A stretch of DNA of 64,000 nucleotides, taken from sequence record DRR378314_606. One strand, given 5' to 3'. The translations under genes were made by a program, and so were the position numbers. Shown piece after piece: positions 16,277-47,637 of the stretch. The notes under the pieces are model-generated. The model ran no database searches. It was not told where the DNA came from and worked only from the letters and a program-made list of their open reading frames with translations. Numbering within the stretch: the first letter of the stretch is position 1; each line of letters opens with the position of its first letter.

Positions 16277-16575
16277 GCTTATTCTTTTTTGTTTGATATG
16301 TGCCAAACCCAGAATATCGTCATTATCTGTTGCCTAAATAAATTTAGCGGGGCAGCTTGGTGACGCTTGTTCTCCATGATTTGCACACGGATAAAAATTG
16401 TTTGGTTAAATTTAGGAAAATTCCCTTTTCTTAGGTTAAGATAATAAATTTTAGTTGGCTTATATTTAGTGTGATTCAATCCCTAATAAGTTTTGGGAAC
16501 TTAATTTCTATTTGGAGTTTGATCCTTGTAATTCAGGGGTCAATGGAATTTAATTTAAATACTCTAACAAATCAT

Positions 16576-17925
16576 ATGAAGCGCACAGTTTTCCCCTTAT
16601 TATTCCTAACAATAATATTACTTGGACATGGACAATCCATGTTTACGCCCAAGGACCCTATTTTGAGTGACGGGGATTTAGAATTTTTAAAAACACTAAC
16701 CGAAACCATTATTGATAGTTCCCGCATTTACCCCGGAGAACGGGTTGCGGATCAAATGGGCAATAACAATACAGGGGGAATACTTGTTAAGCCAGGAGGT
16801 AGGGGGAGTTATCCGGCCTTCTGGATCAGGGATTATGCCATGTCTTTGGAGTCTGGATTTATTTCCAGGGAGGAACAAAGACATATGTTACTGTTAACAG
16901 CGTCTACCCAAGCGGATAGGACATGGATTACCAAAAATGGGGCTTTAATCCCCTTTGGCGCCATAGCAGATCATATCCGTATGGACGACGGATTGCCCAT
17001 ATATTTTCCGGGTACCTATAGTTTTGAAGAACAGGGCACTCCAGAGTTTGGTAGGACCCCGCCTTATGGCGATCAGTTTTTCTTTGTGCATATGGCCTAT
17101 TACTTTATTAAAACCACGTCGGAATTAACCATTTTAGAACAGAAAATAAATGGAACGAGCCTTATGGACCGACTCGAAATTGCATTTAATTTGCCACCAT
17201 CGAGATTGGAAGATCATATTGTTACCACCACGGACCATTTTAGGGGCATCGATTTTGGGTTTAGGGATGTTATGACCATTACGGGCGATCTTTGTTATCC
17301 GTCCATATTAAAATTTAAGGCGGCCCTGGAACTTTCCGAATTGTTTGAAAAACGAAACAATCCGGTTAAGGTGGAGAAGTATAGGCTGATTGCCAATAAT
17401 ATCAAGGAAGCAATACCACAATTGTTTATGGATGAAAGGGGTATGCTAAAAGCGTCAACCGGAAAAGGAAATCAGCCTGACGTATGGTCTACGGCCTTGG
17501 CCGTATATTACGATATCTTGAGCCAAGTGGAAACGGAAAAAACAAGCCGATTCTTGTCCCAAGCCTACGAAAATGGGCATTTGTCCTACAAAGGTAACAT
17601 TAGGCACATTTTAACCACCGATGACTTTGATGAATCCACGGCTTGGGAATTCTCCTTGGCCCAAAAAAACACTTACCAGAATGGGGCCTATTGGGGCACT
17701 CCCACAGGGTGGGTGTGTTATGCCATAGCCAAAACCAATTTTAAACTTGCCCAGCAATTGGCCAAGGAGTACATAGATGATATACGCCAGAACGATTTTA
17801 GAAAGGGACCAGAATACGGAGCTCCCTATGAATGTTTTCATCCTTCAGGACACACACAAAATCCTTTGTATATGACTACCGTAAGTTGTCCTTTGGCTGC
17901 GTTTAGGGAGATCACTAGGCCTTGA
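16576..17925 (+). CDS. Secreted six-hairpin (alpha/alpha)6 glycosidase-like protein
   Basis: Signal peptide; YPAFWIRDYAM and YQNGAYWGTPTGW...PYEC motifs typical of six-hairpin GH-like proteins. Confidence 0.6.
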   Translation: MKRTVFPLLFLTIILLGHGQSMFTPKDPILSDGDLEFLKTLTETIIDSSRIYPGERVADQMGNNNTGGILVKPGGRGSYPAFWIRDYAMSLESGFISREEQRHMLLLTASTQADRTWITKNGALIPFGAIADHIRMDDGLPIYFPGTYSFEEQGTPEFGRTPPYGDQFFFVHMAYYFIKTTSELTILEQKINGTSLMDRLEIAFNLPPSRLEDHIVTTTDHFRGIDFGFRDVMTITGDLCYPSILKFKAALELSELFEKRNNPVKVEKYRLIANNIKEAIPQLFMDERGMLKASTGKGNQPDVWSTALAVYYDILSQVETEKTSRFLSQAYENGHLSYKGNIRHILTTDDFDESTAWEFSLAQKNTYQNGAYWGTPTGWVCYAIAKTNFKLAQQLAKEYIDDIRQNDFRKGPEYGAPYECFHPSGHTQNPLYMTTVSCPLAAFREITRP

Positions 17926-18263
17926 TTTTTTATGAAATCAACTGTTAGGAGGTGAATAATCAATATTTATTTGTTCAGGCTTTATTACCCATGGAACTCT
18001 GATTTTTCTCAGATAGAGGTTCTAAACCGGAGGAAAGATGATCTGTGTAAAAGAAGTTTCTGTATTCTCCATGTTGGAATTTATAAGCAAAGTATTGACT
18101 GTTATATTGTAAATCAATACTTTAATGCCTTTAAATTATGTATTTTAATTAATGTAATGGCGTAATTCTTGGACTGAGTATGCTTCCGGAAGATTTTGGC
18201 CCTTATAATACCCTTAAAACCCATTGTAAGTATTTATATACCAACTTCTAAAGATTACCAATT

Positions 18264-19112
18264 ATGAAAAGGAAAAGAAACCAAATTGTTGCAACCTTCT
18301 TTATTTTGTTATTTTTTTTGTCAAGCTTTCAATTAATGGCACAGGAGCATCTTGACGCTGACCATGAAAAGGAAATGCATGAACACAATGCAATGGGAAA
18401 TGAAGCAACATTGAAGGTTTTGCTTTTTTCTGGAACCGGTTGGTTCCGTCATCCGGACATTCCCATTGTAAATGGATGGATTGTAAGGTTAGGTGCCGAA
18501 CACAATATGCAGATAGATGTAAGTGAAACTGGTACAGATATATCAAAAGAAAAATTAGGAAATTATGATGTAGTGCTGTTCAACAATGCCAATGTCCTCG
18601 ATAAGGTTTTCAACGAAGAACAGCGTAATGCCATTGAAGAATGGTACAAGGATGGTGGGGCCATTGTTGGTTTACATGCATTGTTGGTACATCAGGAAAA
18701 CTGGCCCTGGATCATGGAATTGGGAGGGTGTGATTTTAATAGTGATTCAGAATTTCTCAAAGCCAAAGTGGTGGTCGATCCTTCGGCCATGGGTCACCCT
18801 GCAGTTAGGGGAATGGGCGAGGAGTTTTGGTATGAAGCTGATTGGACCAATCATACGATATCCGTTACTGGTTTGCCGGGGTTACAGGTGTTGTTAAGAG
18901 TGGACGAATCAACATATGAACCAGTAAGGGAATATTTCAAGACTAGAGGAGGCGTTGCAATGGGTGAAGATCATCCTATAGCCTGGACCCGGGTTTGGGG
19001 TGGAGGAAGATTCTTCTATACAGAATTGGGCCATGACATCCGTTCGTTGGATACGGATTTTGGTAGACAACATCTTATAGAAGGAATAAAATGGGCCGTG
19101 AAAAAAGAATGA
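18264..19112 (+). CDS. ThuA domain-containing protein, secreted
   Basis: KVLLFSGTGWFRH, YDVVLFNNA, GGAIVGLHA, VLLRVDESTY, DHPIAWTR, GRFFYTELGH. Confidence 0.9.
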   Translation: MKRKRNQIVATFFILLFFLSSFQLMAQEHLDADHEKEMHEHNAMGNEATLKVLLFSGTGWFRHPDIPIVNGWIVRLGAEHNMQIDVSETGTDISKEKLGNYDVVLFNNANVLDKVFNEEQRNAIEEWYKDGGAIVGLHALLVHQENWPWIMELGGCDFNSDSEFLKAKVVVDPSAMGHPAVRGMGEEFWYEADWTNHTISVTGLPGLQVLLRVDESTYEPVREYFKTRGGVAMGEDHPIAWTRVWGGGRFFYTELGHDIRSLDTDFGRQHLIEGIKWAVKKE

Positions 19113-19176
19113 TACAATGTCCACCTTTATTATATCAAAATCCAAGACATTACAACTTTATAAACCACAATTAAAA

Positions 19177-21975
19177 ATGGCAATACCTTTTAATATAAGG
19201 AGTATATATAGATTCTTTTGGATTTTGACCATTTTATTTTTGGGTTCATGTAATGACTCATCAAAGACTGAGATAAGTTTTAATAAGGATGTTCGCCCAA
19301 TCTTAAATAGCAAATGTCTAAGATGTCACGGAGGAGTGAAAGCCAATGGCGAGTTTAGTTTGTTATTTGAGGAAGATGCCTTTAGTAAAACGCAATCTGG
19401 CAAAGCGGCCATTGTACGGGGGAATCATGAAAAAAGTGAACTCTACAGAAGATTGGTGTCCAAAGACCCGGAAATTAGGATGCCTTATGAATCTCCAGAA
19501 CTCTCCCAAGAAGAAATCGATATTTTGGGCAAGTGGATCGATCAGGGGGCAAAATGGGAAAAACACTGGGCTTATATTCCCCCTATAGAAAATATTGTAC
19601 CCCCTGTGGTAGCCGATAGTGGTTGGGCCAAGAATCCAATCGATCAATTTATATTTTCCAAGTTAAATGAAAAGGGATTATCTCCTTCAATAAAGGCGGA
19701 TAAGAACACCTTGATGAGAAGGATTTATTTAGACCTTACGGGATTACCGCCGACCATTGAAGAGGCCGAAGCCTTTTTAGGGGATAATTCTCCCAAGGCT
19801 TATGAAAATTTAGTAGATCATTTGCTGGGGTCTTCCCATTTCGGGGAAAGATGGGCTAGTATGTGGTTAGATCTGGCACGGTATGCAGATTCCAAAGGAT
19901 TTGAAAAGGATACCAACAGGGAAATATGGAAATTTCGGGATTGGGTAATAGCGGCTTTTAATAATGACATGCCCTTTAATCAGTTTTCCATTGAACAATT
20001 GGCAGGGGATCTGCTTCCTGAGCCCACCGAGGACCAGTTGATCGCCACGGCCTTCCATAGGAATACACTTGCTAATGATGAGGGTGGAACGGATAACGAA
20101 GAATTTAGGGTGGCCTCTGTTGTGGAAAGGGTAGCAACTACCTATGAAGTCTGGCAGGGAACTACCATGGCCTGCGTCCAATGCCATAGTCACCCTTACG
20201 ACCCTTTCAGGCACGAGGAGTTTTATGAATCCATGGCTTTTTTTAACAATGCGGTCGATGACGATTCTTATTTTGAAAAGCCTAAACTTTTTACTTATTC
20301 CAAGGAGAATAAAAAGGAAGTGGAAAATCTTTTGGAATACATTAATGGGCATTTGCTCCCCAGTGACGGGCAAGTGACAAAGTCACGTTTCTTATACGAT
20401 CAAAAAGAGGCCTTGTTAACGCATTTGGGCTATCGTTTCACGGAAGCTGAAGCATTTGATAATACCAGTCCCTTTATAGAGTTGGATGGAGGTTTAAATT
20501 TCTTATGGCAGATTCAGGATAGTTCATGGGCGAGTTACAATGATATTGATTTAAGAAAAGTTAATAAAATGGGCTTTTTGGTGTCTGCCTCGCTAAAATA
20601 TGCAGGTGATATATCAATTCATTTGGATTCTCTAAATGGAAGAAAAATTGGTCAAGTCCGAATAAACAGTACCGAAGATTCCAAACTCGAGGAACACGGG
20701 TTGAAAATTAAGGAGGTTAGTACCCAAATTCCTGAAATTACAGGTAAACACGATGTTTTTTTGCAATTTCATAAAGGCGAAAGTTTTGAGGGGCATCTTT
20801 TCTATTTGGATAAGATCTTCTATTATGAAAAAGAACCTCTTTTTGAGAATCATGACAAGGAATTTAAGCAAAAATTGGAGCAACTTGCCCAAATCCCAAC
20901 TACAAGTACACCTATAATTCAAGAATTGGAAAAAGATAAAGCTCGTAAAACCTATGTTTTTGATCGGGGCAGCTGGCAAAATTTAGGGGAAGAAGTGCAA
21001 GTAGGAATTCCGAATATTTATGCTGTGGATGAATCCAAGGAGCCTAGCAATAGGTTGGAATTTGCCAAGTGGATGGTAAGTGATAAAAATCCTCTATCTG
21101 CCCGCGTTGCAGTAAATCGTTTTTGGGAACAAATTTTTGGAAGGGGTTTGGTGGAATCTATGGAGGAATTTGGTTCACAGGGAAAAAATCCAAGTCATCC
21201 GGAGCTGTTGGATTGGATGGCTGTAAAATTCATGAAAGAATACAATTGGAAGGTAAAACCCTTGTTGCGCGACTTTGTCCTTTCGGCTACCTATCAACAA
21301 TCATCAGATGCAAGCACAGAACGGTTAGAATTGGACCCCAGTAATAGCTGGCTTTCAAGAGGATCTCGTAAACGTCTTTCCGCGGAGCAGATTCGGGATG
21401 AAATTTTGTTAGTGAGCGGCTTGTTGAATAAAACGATCGGGGGACCAAGTGTCATAAATTCAGATGTTGAAATTGCAGGCGGGTGGAACACTCTTCCGGA
21501 TTATGTCATAAAGGGGGATGAAGCCAAGTATAGGCGTTCGCTATATACCTTTTGGAAACGGGTGAACCCACCAATGAACATGATCGTCTTCGATAGTCCG
21601 GATAGGTCGGCTTGTGTTTCAAGTCGGGTACTGACCAATACACCCTTACAGGCCCTTAGTTTACTTAACGACAAAACTTTCTTTGAGGCATCCCAATTAT
21701 TGGCAAAACAAATGTTCGAGGCGGATAATCAATTGGAGAATCAAATTAAATTTGGGTATTTTAAGGTGATGGGAAAAAATCTGAACGGGGAAAAATTGAA
21801 GCACTTGACCCAGCTTTATAATGAGGCTCTAATGCATTATGAAAATAGTAGGGATAATTTGGAGTTCCCTGATGTGGCGTTGCAGTATTCAGGAAAAAAG
21901 AAGCCAATGTTGGCCGCACTTACCATGGTGGCCAACGTATTCCTAAATCTGGATGAATTTATTGTAAAAGGATAA
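19177..21975 (+). CDS. Planctomycete-type cytochrome c / DUF1549 / DUF1553 (PSD1) lipoprotein with CBM6-like insert
   Basis: Lipobox LGSC; ISFNKDVRPIL..KCLRCHG; NPIDQFI, RRIYLDLTGLPP, WLDLARYADS, ACVQCHSHPYDP; NPLSARVAVNRFW, PSHPELLDW, TNTPLQAL. Start could be 19117 or 19177. Confidence 0.9.
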   Translation: MAIPFNIRSIYRFFWILTILFLGSCNDSSKTEISFNKDVRPILNSKCLRCHGGVKANGEFSLLFEEDAFSKTQSGKAAIVRGNHEKSELYRRLVSKDPEIRMPYESPELSQEEIDILGKWIDQGAKWEKHWAYIPPIENIVPPVVADSGWAKNPIDQFIFSKLNEKGLSPSIKADKNTLMRRIYLDLTGLPPTIEEAEAFLGDNSPKAYENLVDHLLGSSHFGERWASMWLDLARYADSKGFEKDTNREIWKFRDWVIAAFNNDMPFNQFSIEQLAGDLLPEPTEDQLIATAFHRNTLANDEGGTDNEEFRVASVVERVATTYEVWQGTTMACVQCHSHPYDPFRHEEFYESMAFFNNAVDDDSYFEKPKLFTYSKENKKEVENLLEYINGHLLPSDGQVTKSRFLYDQKEALLTHLGYRFTEAEAFDNTSPFIELDGGLNFLWQIQDSSWASYNDIDLRKVNKMGFLVSASLKYAGDISIHLDSLNGRKIGQVRINSTEDSKLEEHGLKIKEVSTQIPEITGKHDVFLQFHKGESFEGHLFYLDKIFYYEKEPLFENHDKEFKQKLEQLAQIPTTSTPIIQELEKDKARKTYVFDRGSWQNLGEEVQVGIPNIYAVDESKEPSNRLEFAKWMVSDKNPLSARVAVNRFWEQIFGRGLVESMEEFGSQGKNPSHPELLDWMAVKFMKEYNWKVKPLLRDFVLSATYQQSSDASTERLELDPSNSWLSRGSRKRLSAEQIRDEILLVSGLLNKTIGGPSVINSDVEIAGGWNTLPDYVIKGDEAKYRRSLYTFWKRVNPPMNMIVFDSPDRSACVSSRVLTNTPLQALSLLNDKTFFEASQLLAKQMFEADNQLENQIKFGYFKVMGKNLNGEKLKHLTQLYNEALMHYENSRDNLEFPDVALQYSGKKKPMLAALTMVANVFLNLDEFIVKG

Positions 21976-21984
21976 TATATTATT

Positions 21985-23442
21985 ATGGATATTTTCAATG
22001 AGGCACATTATCGAGAGAGCGAATATAATACCCGTAGGCACTTTTTAAAGAATTGCATTTCCGGTATGGGAGCCTTAACCCTCGGTTCTATGCTGGGCGG
22101 GGATTTGTTTGCCAATAATTTGCCCGCACCAATGGCGGGTAATGGCAGCCCACATTTTTTACCCAAGGCAAAGCATGTGATCTATTTGCACATGGCAGGG
22201 GCACCATCGCAATTGGAGCTTTTTGATCATAAGCCTGTTCTAAATAAATTAAATGGACAGGATTGCCCTCCATCCTTGTTGGAAGGTAAGCGATTTGCGT
22301 TTATCAGGGGTACTCCTAAAATGCTTGGATCGCAGGCTACTTTTAAACAATACGGGGAATCCCGAACATGGATATCCAATTATTTGCCAAAATTTGCCAG
22401 CGTAGTTGATGAAATTAGTTTCCTAAAGGCAGTTTCCACGGAAGAATTTAATCATGCCCCGGCACAGTTCTTAATGCAAACGGGCTCACCAAGACAAGGT
22501 AGGCCTTCATTGGGAAGTTGGGCAACTTACGGGCTGGGTTCGTCCAATGAAAACCTGCCCGGTTTTATTGTTTTACTTTCCGGAGGGGTGGTCACCGGGG
22601 GGAAACGTCTTTGGGGAAGTGGATTTTTACCTACCGTATATCAAGGCGTACAATGTCAGTCAAAAGGGCCTGCGGTCAGGAATCTACAAAACCCTAAAGG
22701 CGTGGACGCAAAATTGAGAAAACAAACTGTTAACGCTATAAATAAAATAAATGAACAGGAGTATCAAGAATCCCGTGATCCTGAAATTCTAACGCGAATG
22801 TCACAATATGAGTTGGCGTTTAAAATGCAAACTTCGGTACCCGGTGTTATGAGTATTGATGATGAACCAGATTATATTAAAAATCTATATGGTGTAACTC
22901 CTGGGGAAGGTTCCTTTGCGAATAATTGCCTTCTAGCTAGAAGGTTGGTAGAAAATGGGGTGCGGTTTGTTCAGCTTTATGATGAAGGTTGGGACACCCA
23001 TGGGGTAGGACCTGGTAGTGGGGTAGATGTTGGACTAAAGGATAAATGTAGCCGTATTGATCAAAGTATGACAGCACTGCTGATGGATTTAAAACAAAGA
23101 GGGCTTTTAGAAGAAACCCTAATTGTTTGGGGAGGGGAGTTTGGTAGAACTCCAATGATGGAGGCTAGATCGGGTCAAGGTTTCTTTGGGCGGGACCATC
23201 ATGGAGAGGCCTTTACTATGTGGATGGCCGGAGGAGGTATTAAAAAAGGATTTTCTTTTGGCGAAACAGATGAAATAGGCTATTCGGGAATCAGGGGCAA
23301 GGTGCATGTCCATGATATACAAGCAACAATTCTTAACCAATTGGGGTTAGACCATGAAAGGCTAACATACCATTTTCAAGGAAGGGATTTTAGACTAACA
23401 GATGTAAGCGGCAACGTAATAAAGGATATTTTAACACAGTAG
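21985..23442 (+). CDS. DUF1501 domain protein with Tat signal
   Basis: TRRHFLK; AKHVIYLHMAGAPSQLELFDHKP, CLLARRLVENGVRFVQL, GWDTH, WGGEFGRTP, GRDHH, GRDFRLTDV. Confidence 0.92.
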   Translation: MDIFNEAHYRESEYNTRRHFLKNCISGMGALTLGSMLGGDLFANNLPAPMAGNGSPHFLPKAKHVIYLHMAGAPSQLELFDHKPVLNKLNGQDCPPSLLEGKRFAFIRGTPKMLGSQATFKQYGESRTWISNYLPKFASVVDEISFLKAVSTEEFNHAPAQFLMQTGSPRQGRPSLGSWATYGLGSSNENLPGFIVLLSGGVVTGGKRLWGSGFLPTVYQGVQCQSKGPAVRNLQNPKGVDAKLRKQTVNAINKINEQEYQESRDPEILTRMSQYELAFKMQTSVPGVMSIDDEPDYIKNLYGVTPGEGSFANNCLLARRLVENGVRFVQLYDEGWDTHGVGPGSGVDVGLKDKCSRIDQSMTALLMDLKQRGLLEETLIVWGGEFGRTPMMEARSGQGFFGRDHHGEAFTMWMAGGGIKKGFSFGETDEIGYSGIRGKVHVHDIQATILNQLGLDHERLTYHFQGRDFRLTDVSGNVIKDILTQ

Positions 23443-23450
23443 TATTAATT

Positions 23451-24818
23451 ATGGAATTGGATTTATTTCTTGGGCGCTTTCACCCTTTATTGGTACACTT
23501 GCCAATCGGGTTTATTGTATTGACCGTGGTTATTGAAATTATTGGCCTGTTTAAGAAAGATAGGAAGATTTACGATCGTATTGTTCAATACTCACTAATA
23601 GCCGTAATGGTGTCAGGGCTTATTACTATTGCCACGGGACTTTTTCTCTCCCAAGGAGGTGACTACGATGCGGATACCCTTTGGCAACATAAGTGGCTTG
23701 GGATAGGGGTGGTCATATTTTCTGCCTTGGCCTACGTGCTTAAAATTAAAGTCCGTACGTATAATAACAGGCAATCTATTTTTATTTCGTCCATATTAAT
23801 AATCCTTGTTGGCTTAACTGGACACCAAGGGGGAGTACTTACCCATGGTCAAGATTATCTTCTTGCCTATTCCCCGGATGTGATAAAGAATCTTGCTGGG
23901 ATCGAATTGGCAAATTCAGAAAAAGGAATCCAACAAAAGAATCAAGACTCTGTTCTTATTTATCAGGATATTATTCAACCTATGTTTGAACAAAAATGTA
24001 CCTCATGCCATAATAATGAGAAACAAAAGGGAAATCTTAATCTTATGGTGTATAAGAATTTATTTGCCGAGGCGGAAAGTGGATATCCCATTGTACAAAG
24101 CGTTCTAGTGGAGAGTGAACTATTTAAGCGCGTAAGTTTACCGTTGAACAATAAAAAATTTATGCCTACAAAGGGAAAACCTTTAAGTTATAGTGAAATA
24201 AAAATTCTTGAATATTGGATAAATATGGGAGCGGATAGCCTGGCAGTCTTCGACCATAAAAATATGACCCCAGAATTATTGCAATTAATGATCCGGGATT
24301 ATAATTTGGACTATAACCCCAAACCTTATATATCAACTATCATTGTTAATGAGGTTGAGCAACAAAAAGTAGATATTTTGATTGAAAATGGATTTACGGT
24401 CAATAGGTTGGGGGAAGATAATTTTTTGTTGGATGTGAGTTATGATGGGGACTTATTAAGTTTGGAACAAATTAATTTTTTGAAGCAAATAGCCGATAAT
24501 ATTACATTTCTAAATCTGTCCGATTGTGGACTATCAGATCAGTTGCTGGCCGAATTGCCAGAACTAAGAAATTTGACTAAAATAGATTTACATTCAAACC
24601 CTATTTCAGATAATGCTCTGCAACATTTGCAAAAGTATAGGCACCTGGAAGTGGTTAATCTTTATGATACACAAGTTTCCAACTTGGGGTTAAAAATATT
24701 GTTGGATCTTGATTCCTTGAAAAGGCTGTATTTGTGGAAAACCAAGGTAACCCAGCAGATGGTGGATGAAAGTAGTAACAATTCAAATGTTTTGATCGAC
24801 CTTGGCGGTGCCATCTAA
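23451..24818 (+). CDS. DUF2231 membrane domain + planctomycete cytochrome c + leucine-rich repeats
   Basis: GRFHPLLVHLPIG, HKWLG, TGHQGGVLTHG; IQPMFEQKCTSCH; LRR repeats LTKIDLHSNPISD, LEVVNLYDTQVS, LKRLYLWKTKVT. Confidence 0.88.
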   Translation: MELDLFLGRFHPLLVHLPIGFIVLTVVIEIIGLFKKDRKIYDRIVQYSLIAVMVSGLITIATGLFLSQGGDYDADTLWQHKWLGIGVVIFSALAYVLKIKVRTYNNRQSIFISSILIILVGLTGHQGGVLTHGQDYLLAYSPDVIKNLAGIELANSEKGIQQKNQDSVLIYQDIIQPMFEQKCTSCHNNEKQKGNLNLMVYKNLFAEAESGYPIVQSVLVESELFKRVSLPLNNKKFMPTKGKPLSYSEIKILEYWINMGADSLAVFDHKNMTPELLQLMIRDYNLDYNPKPYISTIIVNEVEQQKVDILIENGFTVNRLGEDNFLLDVSYDGDLLSLEQINFLKQIADNITFLNLSDCGLSDQLLAELPELRNLTKIDLHSNPISDNALQHLQKYRHLEVVNLYDTQVSNLGLKILLDLDSLKRLYLWKTKVTQQMVDESSNNSNVLIDLGGAI

Positions 24819-24862
24819 GTTTGTTATTGACTAATAGAAATAGTTAGTGTATTGTGCCCTTA

Positions 24863-26740
24863 TTAAGGAATATCGAGGAATTCCAATCTACGCATTACCT
24901 CTGAATCCTCGGCAACCACTTTGGATATCTTATCCAGCTCAATATTAAAATTATAGCCGTAATCACTAGAATTCATCAACACGATCGAATTTAGGATCAG
25001 CAGGGCTTCACTTGGTTTTTCTGAAGTGTACAAAGCGTTTGTCATTACCGAGGATGGGTCCAATTTCTTTACGATACCCAGGAATTCGGCGGCACGCACT
25101 TTGTTGATCAGCTCCGGGTCATCGGATGAGATTTCCCTTATTGTTGTCTCCATACCAATAGCCTGTTCCCCAAAAGAACTGCAAACAATTATGGCCCAAT
25201 ATCTTTCCCAGGGATCGGATGAGTCCAAGGCTTGGGATATAGAATTTTCTGCCTCCCTAAAGTTCAAAAGGCCTAGATCGGCAATTTCTATATATTTTTC
25301 AATTTCCTTTTTGTGTTTTTGTCCAAAGGCCACCGGGTTGTAAAACGCCTCTCTGATCAGATGGTGTTCAGGGTAGAAAGAAAGATCTGGCATTCCTTTT
25401 ACCCAAGTGTTGAGTCTGTTTCGCAGGTCCAATAGTGTAGCCTTATGTTCTGGATCATTGGCCAGATTTTTGGTTTCATAGGGGTCGGCTTCAATATCAA
25501 AAAGCATTTCTGGCGTACGATCTTCAAAAAAGGCCGACTGTATTTCGTTGAGCTCTCCCGTGTCATATAGGGTCTGCCATTCCTTATAGGCCAATTGCTT
25601 GTAACGATAATTGTTCATTAAGCCATCAAAATTAAAGGGCTGATAATTTCTAATGTATTTATACTTCCCTTTTCGTAAGGCCCTTACCATATCATATTTT
25701 TCGTCGAACCTATCGGCATAACTATAGGTCTCATCCCGTGAGTTTAACTCTTCAGCATTTATATCCTTGCCTAAAAAGGCCTTTCCATCTATTTCTTTGG
25801 GTATATCTATGCCTGCAAGGTTTAATACTGTTGGTGCCAAATTAATAAAGCTTACAAAACCGTTTACGGAGCTGCCAACAGGACTATTTACAAGGTGTTT
25901 GTATTTTTCGGGAACGTGGACTACCATGGGAACGTGGAGTCCCGTTTCATAGAGGTAACCCTTGCTTCCCGGTAGTACACCTCCATGGTCCCCATAGTAA
26001 AAAATGAAGGTATCATCCAAGCGGCCATCTTCCTTTAGTTCCTTGATTATTTCCCCAACCTGGCGGTCCATTTCCCTGATTTTGTCGCGGTATAGGGCAT
26101 TGGTGTATTTAAATAAATCAGTATTGGGGTGGTTGGGTTGAATTTCAAAAGAGTTTTGAGCCGTTTCAGGAGTGTTGGTTTCCATGTCTTCGGCAGAAAA
26201 GTGCATACTGGATTCATGAGAGACCCCAATATTAAAAACATGGAAAAAAGGTTGATTTTCACCCCTGTTTCTCCAACTTGCCTTCTTTGAAGACTCGTCC
26301 CAAACTCCTTCGGTTTTGTTTATATTATAATCTTCCTTGCTATTATTGGTAGTGTAATAACCAGCCTCCCTTAGATAGGCAGGAAACATTTTTAGTGAAT
26401 CGGGCATGGGGACAGTAGCGATCTTTCTATGAAATTGAGCTCCTATACGTGGTCCGTAGCAACCGGATATAATCGCGGACCGAGCAACACTGCAGACCGG
26501 GGCATTGGAAAATGCACGATTAAATATCAGGCCATGTTCTGCCAAGGATTCAATATTCGGGGTGGCAATACCATTCTCGTCAAAAAGCTTTAGATAGTGT
26601 TTGGAATTATCCTCAGAAGTGATCCATACAATATTGGGACGTTGTTCTTCTGTCCGGTGGGATTCACAACTAAAAATGGTTAAGGCACCAATAAATAAAA
26701 TAAGGTACTTGAAAAGTATTCTAGGGTTAAACTTTAACAT
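24863..26740 (-). CDS. S1 sulfatase lipoprotein with C-terminal helical (HEAT-like) extension
   Basis: Lipobox IFSC, PNIVWITSED, APVCSVARSAIISG, YYGDHGG, GKYKYIRNY. Confidence 0.88.
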   Translation of the reverse strand: MLKFNPRILFKYLILFIGALTIFSCESHRTEEQRPNIVWITSEDNSKHYLKLFDENGIATPNIESLAEHGLIFNRAFSNAPVCSVARSAIISGCYGPRIGAQFHRKIATVPMPDSLKMFPAYLREAGYYTTNNSKEDYNINKTEGVWDESSKKASWRNRGENQPFFHVFNIGVSHESSMHFSAEDMETNTPETAQNSFEIQPNHPNTDLFKYTNALYRDKIREMDRQVGEIIKELKEDGRLDDTFIFYYGDHGGVLPGSKGYLYETGLHVPMVVHVPEKYKHLVNSPVGSSVNGFVSFINLAPTVLNLAGIDIPKEIDGKAFLGKDINAEELNSRDETYSYADRFDEKYDMVRALRKGKYKYIRNYQPFNFDGLMNNYRYKQLAYKEWQTLYDTGELNEIQSAFFEDRTPEMLFDIEADPYETKNLANDPEHKATLLDLRNRLNTWVKGMPDLSFYPEHHLIREAFYNPVAFGQKHKKEIEKYIEIADLGLLNFREAENSISQALDSSDPWERYWAIIVCSSFGEQAIGMETTIREISSDDPELINKVRAAEFLGIVKKLDPSSVMTNALYTSEKPSEALLILNSIVLMNSSDYGYNFNIELDKISKVVAEDSEVMRRLEFLDIP

Positions 26741-31362: not shown

Positions 31363-31545
31363 GTTAAATGGCTTATTCATTGTTACATAAGAAATTGGTT
31401 GGTAGGGCAAAGATAACTGTTGAAGATTTTCATTAAAATGGTTGTGGGGATGTTTTAAAGCCAAAATCAGGTTATATTCGGGCCTATTTTACGATTTTCT
31501 TAATTCATGCCCTTATTCCTTATCATTTTTAGTTTATATTGTTTT

Positions 31546-34500
31546 ATGCGATTTTTTAATGTAAGAACAACCCCCCTATTCGTTTTTATTTTTTGCACAA
31601 CGATCGGTTTTGCTCAAAATGCAACTTCTAATTCCGATAATTCTACGATTAAAATTTGGAATAATTCCTCTGCAGCTAGCCAAAATAACCCAAAAAGTGC
31701 TCTAATCCATCCAGAAAGAAAATACAAATTACAGCAAATAGATAATTCCCTCGGCCTATCAAACAGTTCCATCAATGCAATTTTTCAAGATTCGGACAAC
31801 TTGCTTTGGATTGGGACCTGGGATGGCTTAAATCGCTATGACGGGAGTAAATTCAAAATATTTCGCCCTGAATTGAATAATGAGAATAGCTTAAGTAATC
31901 AGGTAATACTTAATATTCTTGAGGACAAGACGGGTCAAATATGGGTGTCGACCATTCATGGAATAAATAGTTATGATAAGAGAACAAATACCTTTAGGCG
32001 TTTTTATTTTTCAAGAATAAACAACCCTCCAGTCTCGGAATCAGAATTTACGATTGCTTTGGATTCCTCCAAAACAGTATTCTGTGCAATAAAGGACTGG
32101 GGTATAGGCTACTTTTTCGAGGATGGTTTTATACAATTGAATTCTTTTAATCTTCCCTCCGAGGCGGTTAAAAAGATGGTGTTCACACCTTCAGGGGATC
32201 TACTTCTTCTATATGACAATAGTGAATTGTACCAATTGGAAATAACTCCCGGGGAAAATGCTCAAAAAAGGATATCAAATAGTGAGTTGGTTGCTGAAAA
32301 TGTAAATGGGTTCGAAATCCTACAAAATGAAAAGTTATGTATTATTTCAAAGACAGGTGAGATGGACATTTTCTCATTGTTGGATCAAGGATCGGTTGAA
32401 GTTGATGAAAGGAATGTTAAAAACATAATAGGATCTATATCCGAGGGACTCCTACTGTCCAATAAATCGGAGTTTTTAATTATTGATAGTTTAGGGAAAA
32501 GAGTAAATCTTCCTTGGCAAAAATATCTTAAAGAGCAAAAGATAACTACTATCTTTCAAGGTAATGAAAACGTTATTTGGGTAGGTACCGATGGGGAGGG
32601 TATTTTTAAGTTATATCCGCTCAGAAAATCCTTTCATTTAGTTACCAAGTCGCAAGTTCCGGAATTCAGTGATGGTATTATTAGAACATTTACAGAGTCT
32701 GAGGGAAATTCTTTTTGGATAGGCACTAAAGGAAAAGGATTGTTCCGCTTTCCTCCCCAATTTTATGAGAATTCAAATGAATCCTTGCCGTATGAAAATT
32801 ATAATCAAAATAATAGCGGGATCAACAATTCAGTTTATGCATTGCATAAAGGACAAGATGACTTAATTTTTATCGGAACGGATGGAGAGGGAATTGATGT
32901 TTTTGATTTGAAAAGGTCAAAACTTGTAAATTGGTCCCAAATCTTGCAGAGTAATCAGTGTGAATACTTTAAGTCGACCTATGCCATTTTTCAGGATAAA
33001 AATGGCTTTATATGGCTGGGTACCAATGGTTATGGAATGATTCGCCTAAAAATCCAACGCTTTGGAGATAAACTAAAGGTTTCTGAATTCAAGAAGTATG
33101 TCGCAGGGGAATATGAAGAAAACAGGCTAAGCAGTAATATTATTTTCTCAATACTTCCTAGGAACGACAGGGAACTATGGATAGGTACACGGTTAGGGGG
33201 GTTGAACCTTTTTAATAAGGAATCAGACTCATTCCAGGTTTTTAAGAATAAAAGGAACGAACTGCGCAGCCTATCCAATGATGATATTTTATGCCTCTAT
33301 AAAGATTTAAAAGATAATCTATGGGTAGGAACAAGTTTCGGGTTGAATTTATTGCAGGAAATAGGAAGTGATGGGGAAGCATATTTTAGACGTTATACCG
33401 TAAATGAAGGCCTGCCGAATAATACTATCCATGGAATTATTTCTGACAAAAAATCAAACCTCTGGATAAGCACTAATTATGGTCTTTCCAATTTTGTAGT
33501 CGATGAATCCAGATTTATCAATTTCACCGAAAATGAGGGTTTACAAAACAATGAGTTTGCGGATGGAGCCTTTTATAAAGGTGCCGACTCTGATTACGTA
33601 TTTATGGGGGGAATTAAAGGATTTAACTATTTTTTGCCTTCGGAAATAGAAGAAGATCCGTTTGTTCCCGACATTCTTATTGATAAAATAAGTGGTCAAA
33701 ATATGAAGGAGCCATACTATCAAAATCTGGTGGTCTCCCCAAACGGTAACAGCTTTCCATCTATTAATTTGGAGCACGATGAGAATTATTTCGACATAGA
33801 CATTGCAGCCCTAACCTTTATTCACAGTGAAAAATGCACATATGCCTATCAGCTTATAGGTTTTGACAACGAATGGGTGTACATCAACAACCGAAGAAAT
33901 ATTTCCTTTACGAATGTACCACCTGGTAAATATTCACTATTGTTAAAATGGACCAATAGCGATGGTATTTGGAGCAATCCCACAAAAGCAATAGATATTA
34001 AGATCGATCCCATTATTTGGCGAACAAATGTGGCATACGCTGTCTATTTGCTACTTTTCCTTCTATTGCTTGTTTTGATTTACAGTTACTATCAAAAAAA
34101 ACAATCTTTAAAACAAAATATTATCAATCAAAAAAGAGAAGAAGAAATTCATCAAAACCGTCTTACTTTCTTTACCAATGTAGCACACGAATTCCAAACT
34201 CCTTTGACTTTGATTACCGGACCTGTTCAAAAACTATCAGAAATGGTGGGTTTAAGTGAAAAGAACCAGAGGTTTATAAATATGATAGAAAGGAACTCAT
34301 CTAGATTACTCTTTTTAACACAACAATTACTCGAATTTAGAAAAGCGGAAAGCAATTATGTGGAGGTGCGAGTAAAGCAATTCGATCTAGTGAATTTAAT
34401 AGAGCAAATTGCCGAATTATTTGATGAATGGGCCATTCAGAAAAATATTGAATACGAATTGGAAATGCCATCCTTATTGCAGGGGTGGTTCGACAAGGAT

Positions 34501-35751
34501 AAAATTGAGAAGATCGTATTTAACCTTTTGTCCAATGCCTTTAAATATACTCCAGAAAATGGAAATATTAATCTAAAGTTATTTATTGAGGACGATTACG
34601 ATATTCTTAATATTATAGTATCCAATTCTGGAGAGGGTATTGCCAAAGAAAAATTGGAGCGCGTATTTACAAGATTTGTATTGTTGGATGAGAGTAAGGA
34701 TACGGATACCGATAAGTTTAGGACTGGGATAGGATTGGCATATGTAAAAAGTTTGGTGACAGTTTTGAAAGGTGAGATTACGGTTACGAGCGAAGTCAAG
34801 AAAGAGACCTCATTTAAGGTTTTGCTTCCCTGTAACAAGGGGAGCTTTAAGGATACTGAATTGGAAGAGCATTCCGGGCAGGTAAATATATCCTATCACC
34901 TAAAAAACATTTTGGAAGATGGATCTGGCAATTCTGAAGATATTTCAAATAAATTAACGTCACTTGATGTTCTTCAAAATAAACGTAAAATTGTTTTGAT
35001 TGTTGAGGACGAAAAAGATGTAAGGGTATTTTTAAAAGAGCTATTGATAGATAAATATAATGTTCTAACAGCCAATAATGGGGCCGAGGCCTTGGAATTA
35101 ATGAAAAAGGAAATGCCAGATCTGATTATAAGTGACCTTATGATGCCGGAAATGGATGGAATGGAATTATGTAAAAAAATAAGGAACAACAACCTTACAT
35201 GTCATATTCCTTTTATTATGCTTACATCCAAAAATTCTGTCATTCATAGTATTGAAGGATTGGAAAGTGGAGCAAATTCATATATTCCCAAACCCTTTCA
35301 TCCAGATTATTTGCAGGTGAAAGTTCAAAATCTCCTGGAAGAAAAGGAGGTGATGCTAAAATATCTATCCAAGGAAACACCAATGGATAGCTTTACGAAT
35401 GTTTTAGAGCATGATGAACATAAGGACTTCATGAAAAAGGTTTTGAAAATTATTCATAACAATATAGAAAATGAAAACCTTCAAAGTTTGTTCATAGAGA
35501 AAGAATTAGGAATTAGTAGTTCACAGCTCTATAGAAAAATTAAATATATATACGGCTTTTCTCCCGGGGACCTTATACGAACCGTAAGATTAAAACATGC
35601 GGCGGCGCTCTTGAGAAAAAATACACTTACGGTCTCGGAGGTTTGCTATCAATCCGGGTTCAACAACCGTTCCTATTTTTATAGGGAATTTAAGAAAATG
35701 TATAGTATCACTCCAAAAAATTATCAGCTTAAGGCTATGTCTAGTTTGTAG
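31546..35751 (+). CDS. Hybrid two-component system sensor/regulator (HTCS)
   Basis: Periplasmic Reg_prop repeats (LWIGT.DGL), Y_Y_Y domain, TM helix, HisKA FFTNVAHEFQTPLTLI, HATPase NLLSNAFKY/GIGL, REC SDLMMP, and AraC SEVCYQSGFNNRSYFYREFKK. Start could be 31507 or 31546. Confidence 0.96.
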   Translation: MRFFNVRTTPLFVFIFCTTIGFAQNATSNSDNSTIKIWNNSSAASQNNPKSALIHPERKYKLQQIDNSLGLSNSSINAIFQDSDNLLWIGTWDGLNRYDGSKFKIFRPELNNENSLSNQVILNILEDKTGQIWVSTIHGINSYDKRTNTFRRFYFSRINNPPVSESEFTIALDSSKTVFCAIKDWGIGYFFEDGFIQLNSFNLPSEAVKKMVFTPSGDLLLLYDNSELYQLEITPGENAQKRISNSELVAENVNGFEILQNEKLCIISKTGEMDIFSLLDQGSVEVDERNVKNIIGSISEGLLLSNKSEFLIIDSLGKRVNLPWQKYLKEQKITTIFQGNENVIWVGTDGEGIFKLYPLRKSFHLVTKSQVPEFSDGIIRTFTESEGNSFWIGTKGKGLFRFPPQFYENSNESLPYENYNQNNSGINNSVYALHKGQDDLIFIGTDGEGIDVFDLKRSKLVNWSQILQSNQCEYFKSTYAIFQDKNGFIWLGTNGYGMIRLKIQRFGDKLKVSEFKKYVAGEYEENRLSSNIIFSILPRNDRELWIGTRLGGLNLFNKESDSFQVFKNKRNELRSLSNDDILCLYKDLKDNLWVGTSFGLNLLQEIGSDGEAYFRRYTVNEGLPNNTIHGIISDKKSNLWISTNYGLSNFVVDESRFINFTENEGLQNNEFADGAFYKGADSDYVFMGGIKGFNYFLPSEIEEDPFVPDILIDKISGQNMKEPYYQNLVVSPNGNSFPSINLEHDENYFDIDIAALTFIHSEKCTYAYQLIGFDNEWVYINNRRNISFTNVPPGKYSLLLKWTNSDGIWSNPTKAIDIKIDPIIWRTNVAYAVYLLLFLLLLVLIYSYYQKKQSLKQNIINQKREEEIHQNRLTFFTNVAHEFQTPLTLITGPVQKLSEMVGLSEKNQRFINMIERNSSRLLFLTQQLLEFRKAESNYVEVRVKQFDLVNLIEQIAELFDEWAIQKNIEYELEMPSLLQGWFDKDKIEKIVFNLLSNAFKYTPENGNINLKLFIEDDYDILNIIVSNSGEGIAKEKLERVFTRFVLLDESKDTDTDKFRTGIGLAYVKSLVTVLKGEITVTSEVKKETSFKVLLPCNKGSFKDTELEEHSGQVNISYHLKNILEDGSGNSEDISNKLTSLDVLQNKRKIVLIVEDEKDVRVFLKELLIDKYNVLTANNGAEALELMKKEMPDLIISDLMMPEMDGMELCKKIRNNNLTCHIPFIMLTSKNSVIHSIEGLESGANSYIPKPFHPDYLQVKVQNLLEEKEVMLKYLSKETPMDSFTNVLEHDEHKDFMKKVLKIIHNNIENENLQSLFIEKELGISSSQLYRKIKYIYGFSPGDLIRTVRLKHAAALLRKNTLTVSEVCYQSGFNNRSYFYREFKKMYSITPKNYQLKAMSSL

Positions 35752-35791
35752 AACATATGTAATCTTCTCATTTTAAACGTTTTACAATTTG

Positions 35792-35834
35792 GTGTACACT
35801 TTTGATTAAATAGTGTACACATTTTGGTGTACCC
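35792..35834 (+). promoter_or_regulatory. Candidate HTCS operator upstream of susC
   Basis: GTGTACAC at 35792 and 35813 (21-bp period), plus GTGTACCC at 35827. Confidence 0.65.
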
Positions 35835-35955
35835 TACTTCTAATTTTACTTCAACTTGAAACTGGCTATTTATAGGCAGGTTATAATTTATTCCGACTTG
35901 CTTTTAGGAGTAAAAAAAGTGCTCAACTTGATTAACCAAATTTAAAACAATTCTT

Positions 35956-38900
35956 ATGATGATGAAAAATTGTATTAGTAAGCTAACTTTTCTCGGAGCC
36001 ATTCTTTTTGGAAGCTCCCTGCTGGCACAAAACATTACCGGCGTCGTCTCGGATGATGAAGGTCCCCTGCCAGGGGTAAACGTAATTATAGAAGGAACCT
36101 CCATAGGAACTTCTACAGATTTTGACGGCAATTACACCATTTCGAATGTGGATACCAATGCGGTATTGTTGTTTAGCTATATAGGCTATAAGACCCAGGC
36201 GATTCCGGTCAATGGACAAACCCAAATTAATGTTACCATGTCCGTAGATGCAAATGCTTTGGATGAAGTTGTTCTTGTAGGGTATTCCACTTTAAAGAAA
36301 TCTACTTTAACCGGGGCAATTTCCGTAGTGGATGTGGATGATTTGAACAAAGCCAGAACCTCCAATGTTGCCCAAGCATTACAGGGGCAAGTTGCTGGGG
36401 TACAGGTTGCCTCCAGTAGCGGGGCCCCAGGTGGTGGGATTCAAGTTCGTATCCGTGGAGTAGGTACTATTGGAAATAACGATCCATTATATATTGTGGA
36501 TGGGGTACCGTCTCGGGATATTACCTTTTTGAACCAGTCCGATATAAAAACCATGTCGGTTTTAAAAGATGCTGCGGCTGCATCCATCTACGGTTCAAGG
36601 GCATCTGCTGGTGTTGTCCTGATTACCACTAAAAGTGGTTCAGCAGGAAAAATGAAGCTTGAGGCCGAGTACTGGTATGGTGTTCAATCCGCTTCAAACT
36701 TACCTACCATGCTCAATGCCGAACAATATATAAACACTACTGAGAAAGCTTGGAACAATACATATACCGGAGCAAATCCATATACTGCGGATAGGGGCAG
36801 GGCAGATTTTAGTGATACTGATTGGCTGGATGAACTCTTCGAGGGAGGAAGTTCCCAAAACCTACAGTTGTCTGCCAGCGGAGGTAGTGAAAATGTTCAA
36901 TTTTTGACATCCTTGGGATACTATGGGGAAAATGGTATAGTGGTTTATGATAATGACAAATTCCGAAGATTGAATTTTAGATCTAATATCAACGCCGACC
37001 TAACGGATAGATTAAAGATTGGGACCAATGTTCAATTGTCTTCATCAACCCAGGACAAAGTTCCTTCTACAGGAGAAAGTTTAATACGATTTGCGCTGTT
37101 AAGGGCTCCCGTAATACCCGTTTTTAAAGATGTAAATGATCCAACCTATTCCGAAAGAGATCCTTTTACCGATATGCCTTTCTTTACAGCTACCGGTTAT
37201 GATCAAGGATTGAACAGAACTATGTACGAAATGGTCGGAAATCCCATTGCGCAAGCTTATTTTTCAGATGACCAGACCAGAATATTCAAAACTTTCGGCA
37301 ACATATATGGCCAGTATTCTTTTTTAAAGGATAAAGAATTAACCTTTAGATCCAATGTAGGGGTAGACCTTACCTTTTTTCATGACAAAACATTTAATGA
37401 GAATTACGGAGATGATGATGGTGGTGGAAGTGCAATAGATCAAGGATTGGGAAGAAGGAACAGGCCCAATAATCTAAGTGAAAGAAGAGGGGAATCTTTG
37501 GCCCTAACTTTTAGTAATACCTTAAATTACAATAAGTCGTTCGGTGAAAAACACGACTTCAGTGCTATGGTCGGTACCGAATATGTTACACAAACAGAGT
37601 CGGACATCGTTGCCAGCAGGGCGCGTTTCCCATATTCCATAGACGAGTTTAGATATTTGTCCTATGGCGGTGAAGGCTTGGACGAAAATAACGCAGGTGC
37701 AGGTACGGAATCTGCTCTGTTCTCCTATTTTGGGTCTACTACATATTCCTATGACAATAAATACATGATAACCGCCAATTTGAGAGCGGACGCGTCATCA
37801 AGGTTTGCCGAAAATAATCGTTGGGGATATTTTCCATCGGTTTCTGGAGGTTGGACACTATCAAGGGAGGATTTTTTAAGCGAAGTAGATTGGCTATCCG
37901 ATTTAAAATTAAGAGCTAGTTGGGGTCAACTGGGGAATCAAAATATAGACAATTACACTTACGCTGAATTAATAGAACAAACGGAAGGCATTGTTAGAAA
38001 AGTACGCTATGGTAATCCCGATCTAAAATGGGAAACTACCACTCAGGCCAACTTTGGAATCGACTTGGGTCTTTTTAATAACAAAGTCGGTGTTACAGCG
38101 GAATATTTTGACAAAAGCACAACGGACATATTGTTACCTATAGGCTTACCTGGTTTCCTTGGCGATTTGCAGCCAACCATAGTCAATGCCGGTGAGGTGA
38201 GCAATAAGGGATTTGAATTTTCAGTCAATTTTAGAAATTCAGAACGAGAGTTTAAATATAATATCAACGCTAACCTTTCAACAGTAACAAATAATGTTGA
38301 AAAATTGCATCCAAATGTGCCCAATATAGTCAATAACGAATCCAGAACGGTAGTTGGTCAGCCTTTGGATGCTTATTACGGATATAGAATGGAAGGGATT
38401 TACCAGAATCAGGCAGAAATAGATAGTCATTTATTTTTGGAAGGGAATTCCAAACCAGGGGACATTAGGTTCAAGGATATTAATGGGGATGGGAAAATAA
38501 GTCCGGATTTTGATCGCGAATTTATAGGATCCTCTATCCCGGATCTTACCTATGGTATCTTCCTAACAGGAGAATACAAAGGATTTGACATGTCCATGCT
38601 TTTTCAGGGAGTAGAGGGTATTGACAGGTATAATGACGGGAAAAAGATCATAGATTTTGATACAAGGCCTTTTAATTACACTACGGCTATTTTAGGGGCT
38701 TGGGACGGAGAAGGCAGCACCAATAGTATTCCAAGGGTTGCTTTTGAGGATAATGGTAGTAGCAAGGTCTCAAGTATTTTTGTTGAAGACGCATCCTATT
38801 TCCGTTTGAAAAATATTGAAATTGGCTATACCATAGATGGCGTTCAAGGGTTTGACAGCGCACGACTTTATATATCCGGTAGAAATCTCCTTACCTCTAC

Positions 38901-39000
38901 CAATTATACAGGTTTGGATCCCGAAGCATCGGATTTAGTAGATAAGGGTACCTACCCACTTTCTACATCCTTCATGTTTGGTGTAAACGTTAAATTTTAA
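35956..39000 (+). CDS. susC: SusC/RagA family TonB-dependent transporter
   Basis: GTSTDFDGNY, LDEVVLVGY, DPLYIVDG, VLKDAAAASIYGSRASAGVVLITTK, NPDLKWET, C-terminal VNVKF. Confidence 0.96.
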   Translation: MMMKNCISKLTFLGAILFGSSLLAQNITGVVSDDEGPLPGVNVIIEGTSIGTSTDFDGNYTISNVDTNAVLLFSYIGYKTQAIPVNGQTQINVTMSVDANALDEVVLVGYSTLKKSTLTGAISVVDVDDLNKARTSNVAQALQGQVAGVQVASSSGAPGGGIQVRIRGVGTIGNNDPLYIVDGVPSRDITFLNQSDIKTMSVLKDAAAASIYGSRASAGVVLITTKSGSAGKMKLEAEYWYGVQSASNLPTMLNAEQYINTTEKAWNNTYTGANPYTADRGRADFSDTDWLDELFEGGSSQNLQLSASGGSENVQFLTSLGYYGENGIVVYDNDKFRRLNFRSNINADLTDRLKIGTNVQLSSSTQDKVPSTGESLIRFALLRAPVIPVFKDVNDPTYSERDPFTDMPFFTATGYDQGLNRTMYEMVGNPIAQAYFSDDQTRIFKTFGNIYGQYSFLKDKELTFRSNVGVDLTFFHDKTFNENYGDDDGGGSAIDQGLGRRNRPNNLSERRGESLALTFSNTLNYNKSFGEKHDFSAMVGTEYVTQTESDIVASRARFPYSIDEFRYLSYGGEGLDENNAGAGTESALFSYFGSTTYSYDNKYMITANLRADASSRFAENNRWGYFPSVSGGWTLSREDFLSEVDWLSDLKLRASWGQLGNQNIDNYTYAELIEQTEGIVRKVRYGNPDLKWETTTQANFGIDLGLFNNKVGVTAEYFDKSTTDILLPIGLPGFLGDLQPTIVNAGEVSNKGFEFSVNFRNSEREFKYNINANLSTVTNNVEKLHPNVPNIVNNESRTVVGQPLDAYYGYRMEGIYQNQAEIDSHLFLEGNSKPGDIRFKDINGDGKISPDFDREFIGSSIPDLTYGIFLTGEYKGFDMSMLFQGVEGIDRYNDGKKIIDFDTRPFNYTTAILGAWDGEGSTNSIPRVAFEDNGSSKVSSIFVEDASYFRLKNIEIGYTIDGVQGFDSARLYISGRNLLTSTNYTGLDPEASDLVDKGTYPLSTSFMFGVNVKF

Positions 39001-39018
39001 TTTAAAAAAATAGTAATC

Positions 39019-40503: not shown

Positions 40504-40555
40504 AACAAATCAAAAACATAAATTATTGAGTTGATTGTTAAGTTTTGTTGGAGTT

Positions 40556-40592
40556 GAGAAGTAGTATGAATTCTATATACTACTTCTCTTTT
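40556..40592 (+). terminator. Intra-operon stem-loop after susD
   Basis: GAGAAGTAGTAT-9 nt-ATACTACTTCTC-TTTT, a perfect 12-bp stem. Confidence 0.65.
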
Positions 40593-40626
40593 CAAAAACT
40601 TTACCCAACCCAGAACTGAACGGAAT

Positions 40627-47160: not shown

Positions 47161-47172
47161 GGCAGATGTAAA

Positions 47173-47637
47173 TTATAGGCTTTTGGCTGCGGTCTTAATA
47201 GCTCGGATGATCCTAGTATGGGTTCCGCAGCGACAGAGGTTACCCTGCAGTGCAGTTTTGATTTCCATCTCATCTGGGTTTGGGTTGGAATTTAAAAGTC
47301 CAACCGCGGTCATCACCATACCATTGAGGCAATAACCGCATTGGGCAGCCTGCTCGTCCACAAAAGCCTGCTGCACGGCATGTAGCTTACCTTTATTGGT
47401 AGTAAGTCCTTCCAAGGTGATTATTTCAGCATCCCCAATAGAGGATATTGGAATCATACAGCTGTTGATGGACTTTCCGTTCACGAGGATTTTGCACGAC
47501 CCACATTGTGCAAGTCCACAACCAAATTTTGGACCATTAAGTTCCAGATAGTCTCGTAGGACATATAGTAAAGGGGTGTCGGCTTCAGTCTCGACCATTT
47601 TTTGGGAACTGTTGACGTTGAGGTGGTAGGTTGGCAT
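47173..47637 (-). CDS. (2Fe-2S)-binding small subunit (IorA/NicA/CoxS-like)
   Basis: KFGCGLAQCGSC...SC, QCGYC, NLCRC. Confidence 0.95.
   Translation of the reverse strand: MPTYHLNVNSSQKMVETEADTPLLYVLRDYLELNGPKFGCGLAQCGSCKILVNGKSINSCMIPISSIGDAEIITLEGLTTNKGKLHAVQQAFVDEQAAQCGYCLNGMVMTAVGLLNSNPNPDEMEIKTALQGNLCRCGTHTRIIRAIKTAAKSL

Follow-up and report, generated by a model that had tools for sequence, protein, structure and literature searches.

Genes 2, 3 and 4 of a run of four co-directional open reading frames at 18264-24818 (plus strand) of DRR378314_606, a 64,000-nucleotide stretch of DNA analyzed at full length (the window), represent a gene module that is conserved and widespread in bacteria. 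The core of this module is the pair of a PSD1 gene (gene 2) and a DUF1501 gene (gene 3), and gene 4, which encodes a membrane protein, is a frequent third partner. The first gene encodes a ThuA-family protein; it belongs to a different cassette, together with a sulfatase, and stands next to genes 2-4 by chance. The proteins of genes 2 and 3 very probably form a complex, as judged by structure modelling. The first-pass annotation of this DNA had described four tightly packed co-directional genes with their domains, and the open reading frames and Pfam matches confirm that description. The CLRCH, CVQCH and CTSCH motifs, the twin-arginine DUF1501 protein and the leucine-rich repeats (LRR) named there are all present. 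The features are as follows.

18264..19112, plus strand: ThuA-family secreted protein, 282 amino acids (PF06283, E 1e-43); neighbour outside the conserved module
19177..21975, plus strand: gene 2, predicted di-haem lipoprotein, PSCyt1-PSCyt2(DUF1549)-CBM6-PSD1(DUF1553) by Pfam, 932 amino acids; model with predicted local distance difference test (pLDDT) 87.9 and predicted template modelling score 0.90
19315..19482, plus strand: haem 1 of gene 2, C47-x-x-C50-H51 with Met102, predicted His/Met electron-transfer haem; the domain resembles FoxE
20173..20193, plus strand: haem 2 motif of gene 2, C333-x-x-C336-H337-x-H339, invariant in 137/137 sequences
20428..20832, plus strand: CBM6-fold insert of gene 2 (PF03422, E 3e-11) between PSCyt2 and PSD1, degenerate at the Trp loop and the Asn
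21634..21972, plus strand: C-terminal helices of PSD1 (820-833, 872-887, 913-932), predicted DUF1501 docking surface
21985..23442, plus strand: gene 3, DUF1501 protein (E 2e-144) with a twin-arginine translocation (Tat) signal (TRRHFLK) and an alkaline-phosphatase/NPP fold
23451..24818, plus strand: gene 4, membrane protein with a four-helix DUF2231 domain, a predicted His/Met cytochrome c (PSCyt1 with CTSCH) and LRR, by Pfam
24863..26740, minus strand: sulfatase, outside the module; in relatives it usually adjoins the ThuA gene directly

Conservation of genes 2-4 and the position of ThuA

Gene order was compared in 36 type-A loci located through PSD1 or DUF1501 matches, eight of them from the nearest genome (G001) and 14 from each of two further searches. 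The count omits loci of type B and those retrieved by way of gene 4, and the genomes are a sample in which kin are not independent. The PSD1 gene lies upstream of DUF1501 in 35/36 loci, and gene 4 follows within 8 kb downstream on the same strand in 22 (8/8, 10/14 and 4/14, respectively; one contig ends early). DUF2231 matches occur elsewhere in the genome in all five tested genomes whose subclade pairs have no gene 4 nearby, and PSD1 and gene-4 matches fall in the same 8 of 151 Bacteroidota genomes. The ten full-length DUF1501 matches of G001 correspond to eight type-A loci, all with the order PSD1-DUF1501-(accessory)-gene 4, and two type-B loci. In the type-B loci, L048 (6070-10367) and L050 (6922-11223), DUF2231-PSCyt1 is fused to PSCyt2-PSD1 without LRR. 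The type-B DUF1501 is divergent (26-27% identity), yet it keeps the equivalents of H157, D337, H339, E385 and H405. Distance matrices of 46 cognate gene 2-DUF1501 pairs correlate with r 0.94, against 0.25 for the best of 2000 shuffles; the correlation among the eight G001 paralogues (r 0.97) would be given by co-duplication alone. At E 1e-30 or better, the family counts 11,000 cluster representatives, and the papers found assign no reaction to DUF1501/PSCyt/PSD1.

Three loci depart from the usual arrangement. L042:9797-14799 (G001) contains two tandem PSD1 genes of 780 amino acids before a single DUF1501 gene, and L114:9042-10715 (G540) contains a subclade DUF1501 with a CHAT/TPR gene in place of the upstream PSD1 gene. 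In L079:7984-12858 (G175), a gene-4 homologue follows a DUF1552 and PSCyt3/PSD2-5 pair instead, and planctomycete-type modules of either kind may therefore use the membrane cytochrome.

The four genes had been annotated as one unit; genes 2-4 are upheld by the synteny survey, whereas the membership of ThuA is largely refuted, and one conserved system of all four is highly improbable. ThuA is co-directional with gene 2 and 64 bases from it, and the genes may be co-transcribed in this strain. An orthologue of ThuA (84-100%) is present in 16 of 25 genomes of the genus. It stands directly before the PSD1 gene, in the same order as here, in three of the 16 (G018, G006 and G020, the last 99.8% identical to the window), and remains in the locus, behind the sulfatase, in two more (G007 and G004). 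Against membership, no orthologous module was detected within the 20 kb fetched around ThuA in the other 11, G001 included, and the ThuA orthologue directly adjoins the sulfatase in 15/15 contigs of sufficient length. In the window, genes 2-4 sit between ThuA and the sulfatase at 24863-26740. None of the 36 other operons contains a ThuA-like open reading frame; one such frame is located 5.6 kb away from L114. Synonymous divergence (dS) from L062 is 1.01 for ThuA but 0.20, 0.18 and 0.30 for genes 2-4, a fivefold difference between ThuA and genes 2-3; from L063 it is 0.86 for ThuA and 0.43-0.59 for genes 2-4, and from L053 all four are alike (0.74-0.79). Purifying selection acts on each of the four genes, with dN/dS of 0.03-0.24 in comparisons with three relatives.

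The gene at 16471-17925 (plus strand) encodes a secreted protein of 449-484 amino acids that has no Pfam, NCBIfam or PDB sequence match. In 13 of the 15 longer genus loci it accompanies ThuA and the sulfatase, and the three form a small conserved cassette. Compared with L090 of G001, the genes flanking 16471-26740 are 97-98% identical and the genes within it 87-92%; G001 has the orthologous module elsewhere in its genome, and 16471-26740 is a locally exchanged region.

A single DNA contig of a public run (X3) covers the stretch from end to end, which rules out misassembly as the source of the gene order. The longest open reading frame of gene 2 is 19117-21975, with Pfam matches to PSCyt1, PSCyt2/DUF1549 and PSD1/DUF1553 and the motifs CLRCH and CVQCH. 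Its start is likely at 19177, since relatives have a 932-amino-acid protein 63 bases after ThuA; this start gives a lipobox (LGSC) at residue 25 and a gap to ThuA of 64 bases, as in relatives, instead of 4 bases with 19117. The other intergenic gaps are 9 bases (gene 2-DUF1501) and 8 bases (DUF1501-gene 4). The closest named records with gene 4 are from Arenibacter (76-87% identity).

Predicted proteins and their probable complex

Genes 2 and 4 encode predicted c-type cytochromes, based on their exported CXXCH domains and a haem-attachment gene (PF01578) that is present in 3/3 relatives. All three CXXCH motifs of the two genes are invariant, and among the 42 open reading frames scanned in the window only one other contains CXXCH. 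The conserved Met of gene 2 is M102 only, so haem 2 has none; Trp230 is invariant. The lipoprotein with two CXXCH motifs of the first-pass annotation is retained, with a CBM6 domain (PF03422) that was not named there and a revised start. The insert has the beta-sandwich fold of CBM6, and PSD1 inserts in relatives are often CBM-like. The Trp loop and the Asn are the canonical sugar-site residues of CBM6. Two typical binding residues are lacking in gene 2, and the sugar-binding role that had been assigned to it is putative.

Gene 4 has four hydrophobic segments by hydropathy. Its His 11, 16, 80, 125 and 132 are invariant in 30/30 sequences, and four of the five in 139/139. With the cytochrome c domain placed outside, all five lie on the predicted periplasmic half, an arrangement that would differ from that of the two-sided b561 proteins. 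The DUF2231 domain may bind haem b. C183, C186, H187 and M238 are also invariant, which corresponds to a His/Met cytochrome c.

The core of the DUF1501 protein has the alpha/beta fold of the alkaline phosphatase superfamily, which it shares with NPP (2gsn, 7mw8), PafA, sulfatases and LtaS. The invariant residues are H157, D337, H339, E385, D404, H405, R388, D444 and R467. His157 (46/46 and 128/128 sequences) is at the start of a helix and aligns on the sulfatase Cys; no Cys, Ser or Thr nucleophile was found at the start of the catalytic helix, a position whose assignment is weak by sequence. DUF1501 differs from the superfamily in having His for Ser, Thr or formylglycine at the apparent nucleophile position, and in lacking the first-strand Asp (M/Q at 70) and the His after the second Asp (after E385 here). 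It also has its own D-x-H spacing and a helical hairpin insert that is predicted to bind the haem protein. This conservation points to a putative His/Asp/Glu metal site with His at the phosphatase/sulfatase nucleophile position.

Structure prediction, which the first-pass annotation had proposed as a check for interfaces, supports binding between gene 2 and DUF1501, in agreement with the covariation of their distances. The pair has a complex score of 0.87, whereas the best control has 0.00; among solved complexes, 51 of 78 reach the mark for this score, compared with 2 of 108 pairs that were mismatched. At least 92% of the contacts agree between model runs, and the partner pLDDT is at least 86. 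In the model, the helical hairpin 242-283 of DUF1501 lies on the PSD1 domain of gene 2.

Candidate reactions and electron direction

Redox coupling of the gene 2-DUF1501 pair to gene 4 is favoured on balance. In the three relatives examined for quinone genes, menD is above the cut-off in 3/3 and UbiG in 0/3. The potential of His/Met c haems is usually much higher than that of menaquinone. Because of these haems and the menaquinone genes, the downhill direction would be from quinol to the periplasm, the reverse of the path suggested previously. A redox link to the membrane is plausible; the sugar-to-membrane direction is doubtful in a menaquinone organism.

Genes 2-4 are tentatively interpreted as a redox metalloenzyme of the periplasm with an electron connection to the inner membrane, with a quinol-fed direction and oxygen chemistry. 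The Tat-exported DUF1501 protein would dock via its hairpin on PSD1 of the di-haem lipoprotein, as modelled, and may hold the substrate at its putative metal site. The DUF2231-cytochrome-LRR protein would take electrons from menaquinol, which may run via the two His/Met haems to haem 2 or to the metal site. O2 would be activated there and would attack a small substrate oxidatively, one that probably derives from a glycan, and lyase-like products of genes in paralogous operons (PAL-like propellers and TIM barrels) may split the oxidised product. A more specific and more doubtful form of this proposal is a class of quinol-fed periplasmic oxygenases on the alkaline-phosphatase fold, in which His157 would be a metal ligand, the PSD1 protein and gene 4 would deliver menaquinol electrons, and lyases would split a hydroxylated product. 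MsrPQ, TorC and PHM-PAL-cytochrome b561 are quinol-fed periplasmic or amidation systems to which the module can be likened. The likeness presumably consists of a Tat-exported metalloenzyme fed by a His-rich membrane partner and of a hydroxylase followed by a propeller lyase. The module differs from them in that only the accessory propeller of paralogous operons matches PAL, weakly, with no homology by sequence or fold shown for the catalytic or membrane parts.

Several results weigh against this interpretation. Gene 4 is absent from the operon in 14/36 type-A loci, and no match of its DUF2231 domain to cytochrome b or another haem-b protein was found. In the complex model, no residues of the PSCyt2 piece are among the confident contacts, so a short distance from haem to active site does not emerge from it. 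The alignment of H157 with the nucleophile covers 38 columns (P 0.0056) of a hand-chosen fragment, and the global mode failed. The wide spread of His/Met haem potentials softens the argument on direction. At the CBM6 sugar site, TGDW/TGSW is replaced by TEDS and FNL by FYL, and the site is variable across the subclade. The one propeller tested matches PAL (3fvz, E 1.5e-5), and TRIM/Brat NHL domains match it equally. Carbohydrate genes are missing from the surroundings of many subclade loci.

The same three-subunit complex could instead be a dehydrogenase, as in the first-pass annotation. It would oxidise a sugar or glycoside (e.g., at C3, with a 3-keto-glycoside lyase acting next), and the electrons would flow inward via the haems and gene 4 to the respiratory chain; this reading is nearly as probable as the quinol-fed direction with oxygen chemistry. 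Accessory genes within the operons encode six-bladed propellers in 7/36 loci and TIM barrels in 5/36, which suggests an oxidised intermediate that is cleaved by a lyase; such a product is compatible with both readings. An AP_endonuc_2 TIM barrel is found in the operon in five CBM6-subclade loci, and the frequent CBM-like inserts of PSD1 also favour the dehydrogenase. The locus best suited to probing a 3-keto-glycoside link is L075 (5001-14405, G102), with the run PSD1, GFO, DUF1080, DUF1501, TIM barrel and gene 4; fucosidase-family genes (GH29 and GH95) lie on its flanks. The AP_endonuc_2, GFO and DUF1080 families are 3-keto-glycoside lyases or oxidoreductases in the accessible parts of 10.1101/2024.03.25.586180 and PMC8121099. 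Against the dehydrogenase, no flavin, pyrroloquinoline quinone or NAD fold was found in genes 2-4, and menaquinone would be a poor acceptor for high-potential haems. ThuB/GFO, GMC flavoprotein, DUF1080 and TIM-barrel lyase genes are absent from the 42 window open reading frames scanned; they are present in L075 and partly in four more loci, and GFO/DUF1080 insertion occurs in 1/36 loci only.

It is unlikely that DUF1501 is a phospho- or sulfo-ester hydrolase of ordinary chemistry, using metal-bound water or a phospho-His157, with haem proteins that tether it, regulate it or keep its metal reduced. DUF1501 has neither the Ser/Thr/Cys nucleophile (H at 157) nor the first-strand Asp (M/Q at 70), and the two invariant haem sites, the dedicated membrane cytochrome and its fusion would be left unexplained. 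Very unlikely is a MauG-like maturase, in which the di-haem protein would oxidatively build a cofactor in its cognate DUF1501, the working enzyme: as compared with MauG, one His/Met haem, one haem without a conserved Met, the invariant Trp230 and the strict one-to-one pairing are suggestive, but no MauG or cytochrome c peroxidase fold is among the matches listed, which are dominated by CBM6, and variable CBM-type inserts better fit substrate targeting.

The flanking sulfatases and fucosidase, previously taken as a clue to a glycan substrate, are weak evidence, since the neighbours of the closest subclade vary between genomes and may be peptidases, glycosidases or housekeeping genes (44 of 140 candidate open reading frames of those loci scanned).

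Relation to known systems and other genes of the window

The accessible text of PMC3542564 (Kamneva et al. 2012) describes a module of DUF1501 and PSCyt1/PSCyt2/PSD1 in the Planctomycetes-Verrucomicrobia-Chlamydiae (PVC) group and in a few Bacteroidetes, with a Tat signal and carbohydrate-binding inserts, and suggests that the cytochromes hand electrons to proteins or sugars. The core idea of the first-pass annotation, cytochromes acting with sugars, was already proposed there. PMC5615132 (He et al. 2017), in its accessible part, reports a CBM6 insert, sulfatase neighbours and PSCyt genes that are commoner in epilimnion genomes, and that of PMC2754498 states that each domain occurs 41 times in R. 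baltica. Genes 2 and 3 correspond to this module: PSCyt1-PSCyt2-PSD1 are in this order in one exported protein, and a twin-arginine DUF1501 gene is adjacent, 9 bases downstream. The two genes, the Tat signal, the optional carbohydrate-binding insert and the sulfatase neighbours are the same as in the accessible parts of the PVC papers. The third, membrane DUF2231-PSCyt1-LRR gene is the difference, and the four-gene cluster seen in those parts (DUF1501, PPC, PSCyt1/Big_2/PSCyt2/PSD1, PSCyt1/WD40) is different from the cluster here. No DUF2231 partner was found in the main texts of PMC3542564 and PMC5615132 or in the supplement text of the latter, though other supplements may show it; nor do the accessible parts of the two papers contain a complex model or active-site reading. 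ThuAB, LacABC and 3-keto-glycoside lyases are defined in the accessible parts of PMC8121099 and 10.1101/2024.03.25.586180. Those 3-keto-glycoside pathways (ThuAB, LacABC, Gul/BT2156-2159) would resemble the module in periplasmic oxidation followed by lyases, with TIM-barrel, DUF1080 and GFO genes in some subclade operons, but in the window ThuA has no tie to genes 2-4.

The predicted two-subunit complex, the site residues (H157, D337, H339, E385 and H405 of DUF1501, H337/H339 of haem 2 and the five membrane His) and the proposed electron direction open the family to biochemistry, and knockouts are possible in Bacteroidota with one module copy. If the quinol-fed oxygenase is true, a type of reaction could be assigned to a gene family that is among the largest unexplained ones in Planctomycetota, Verrucomicrobiota and Bacteroidota.

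Two other regions of the window were noted. An ordinary polysaccharide utilisation locus at 31507-44670 contains a hybrid two-component regulator, SusC/SusD, GH130 and an MFS transporter. The genes at 44938-47637 (minus strand) encode molybdopterin and 2Fe-2S subunits of the aldehyde/isoquinoline oxidoreductase type, and are kept in the region in several relatives.
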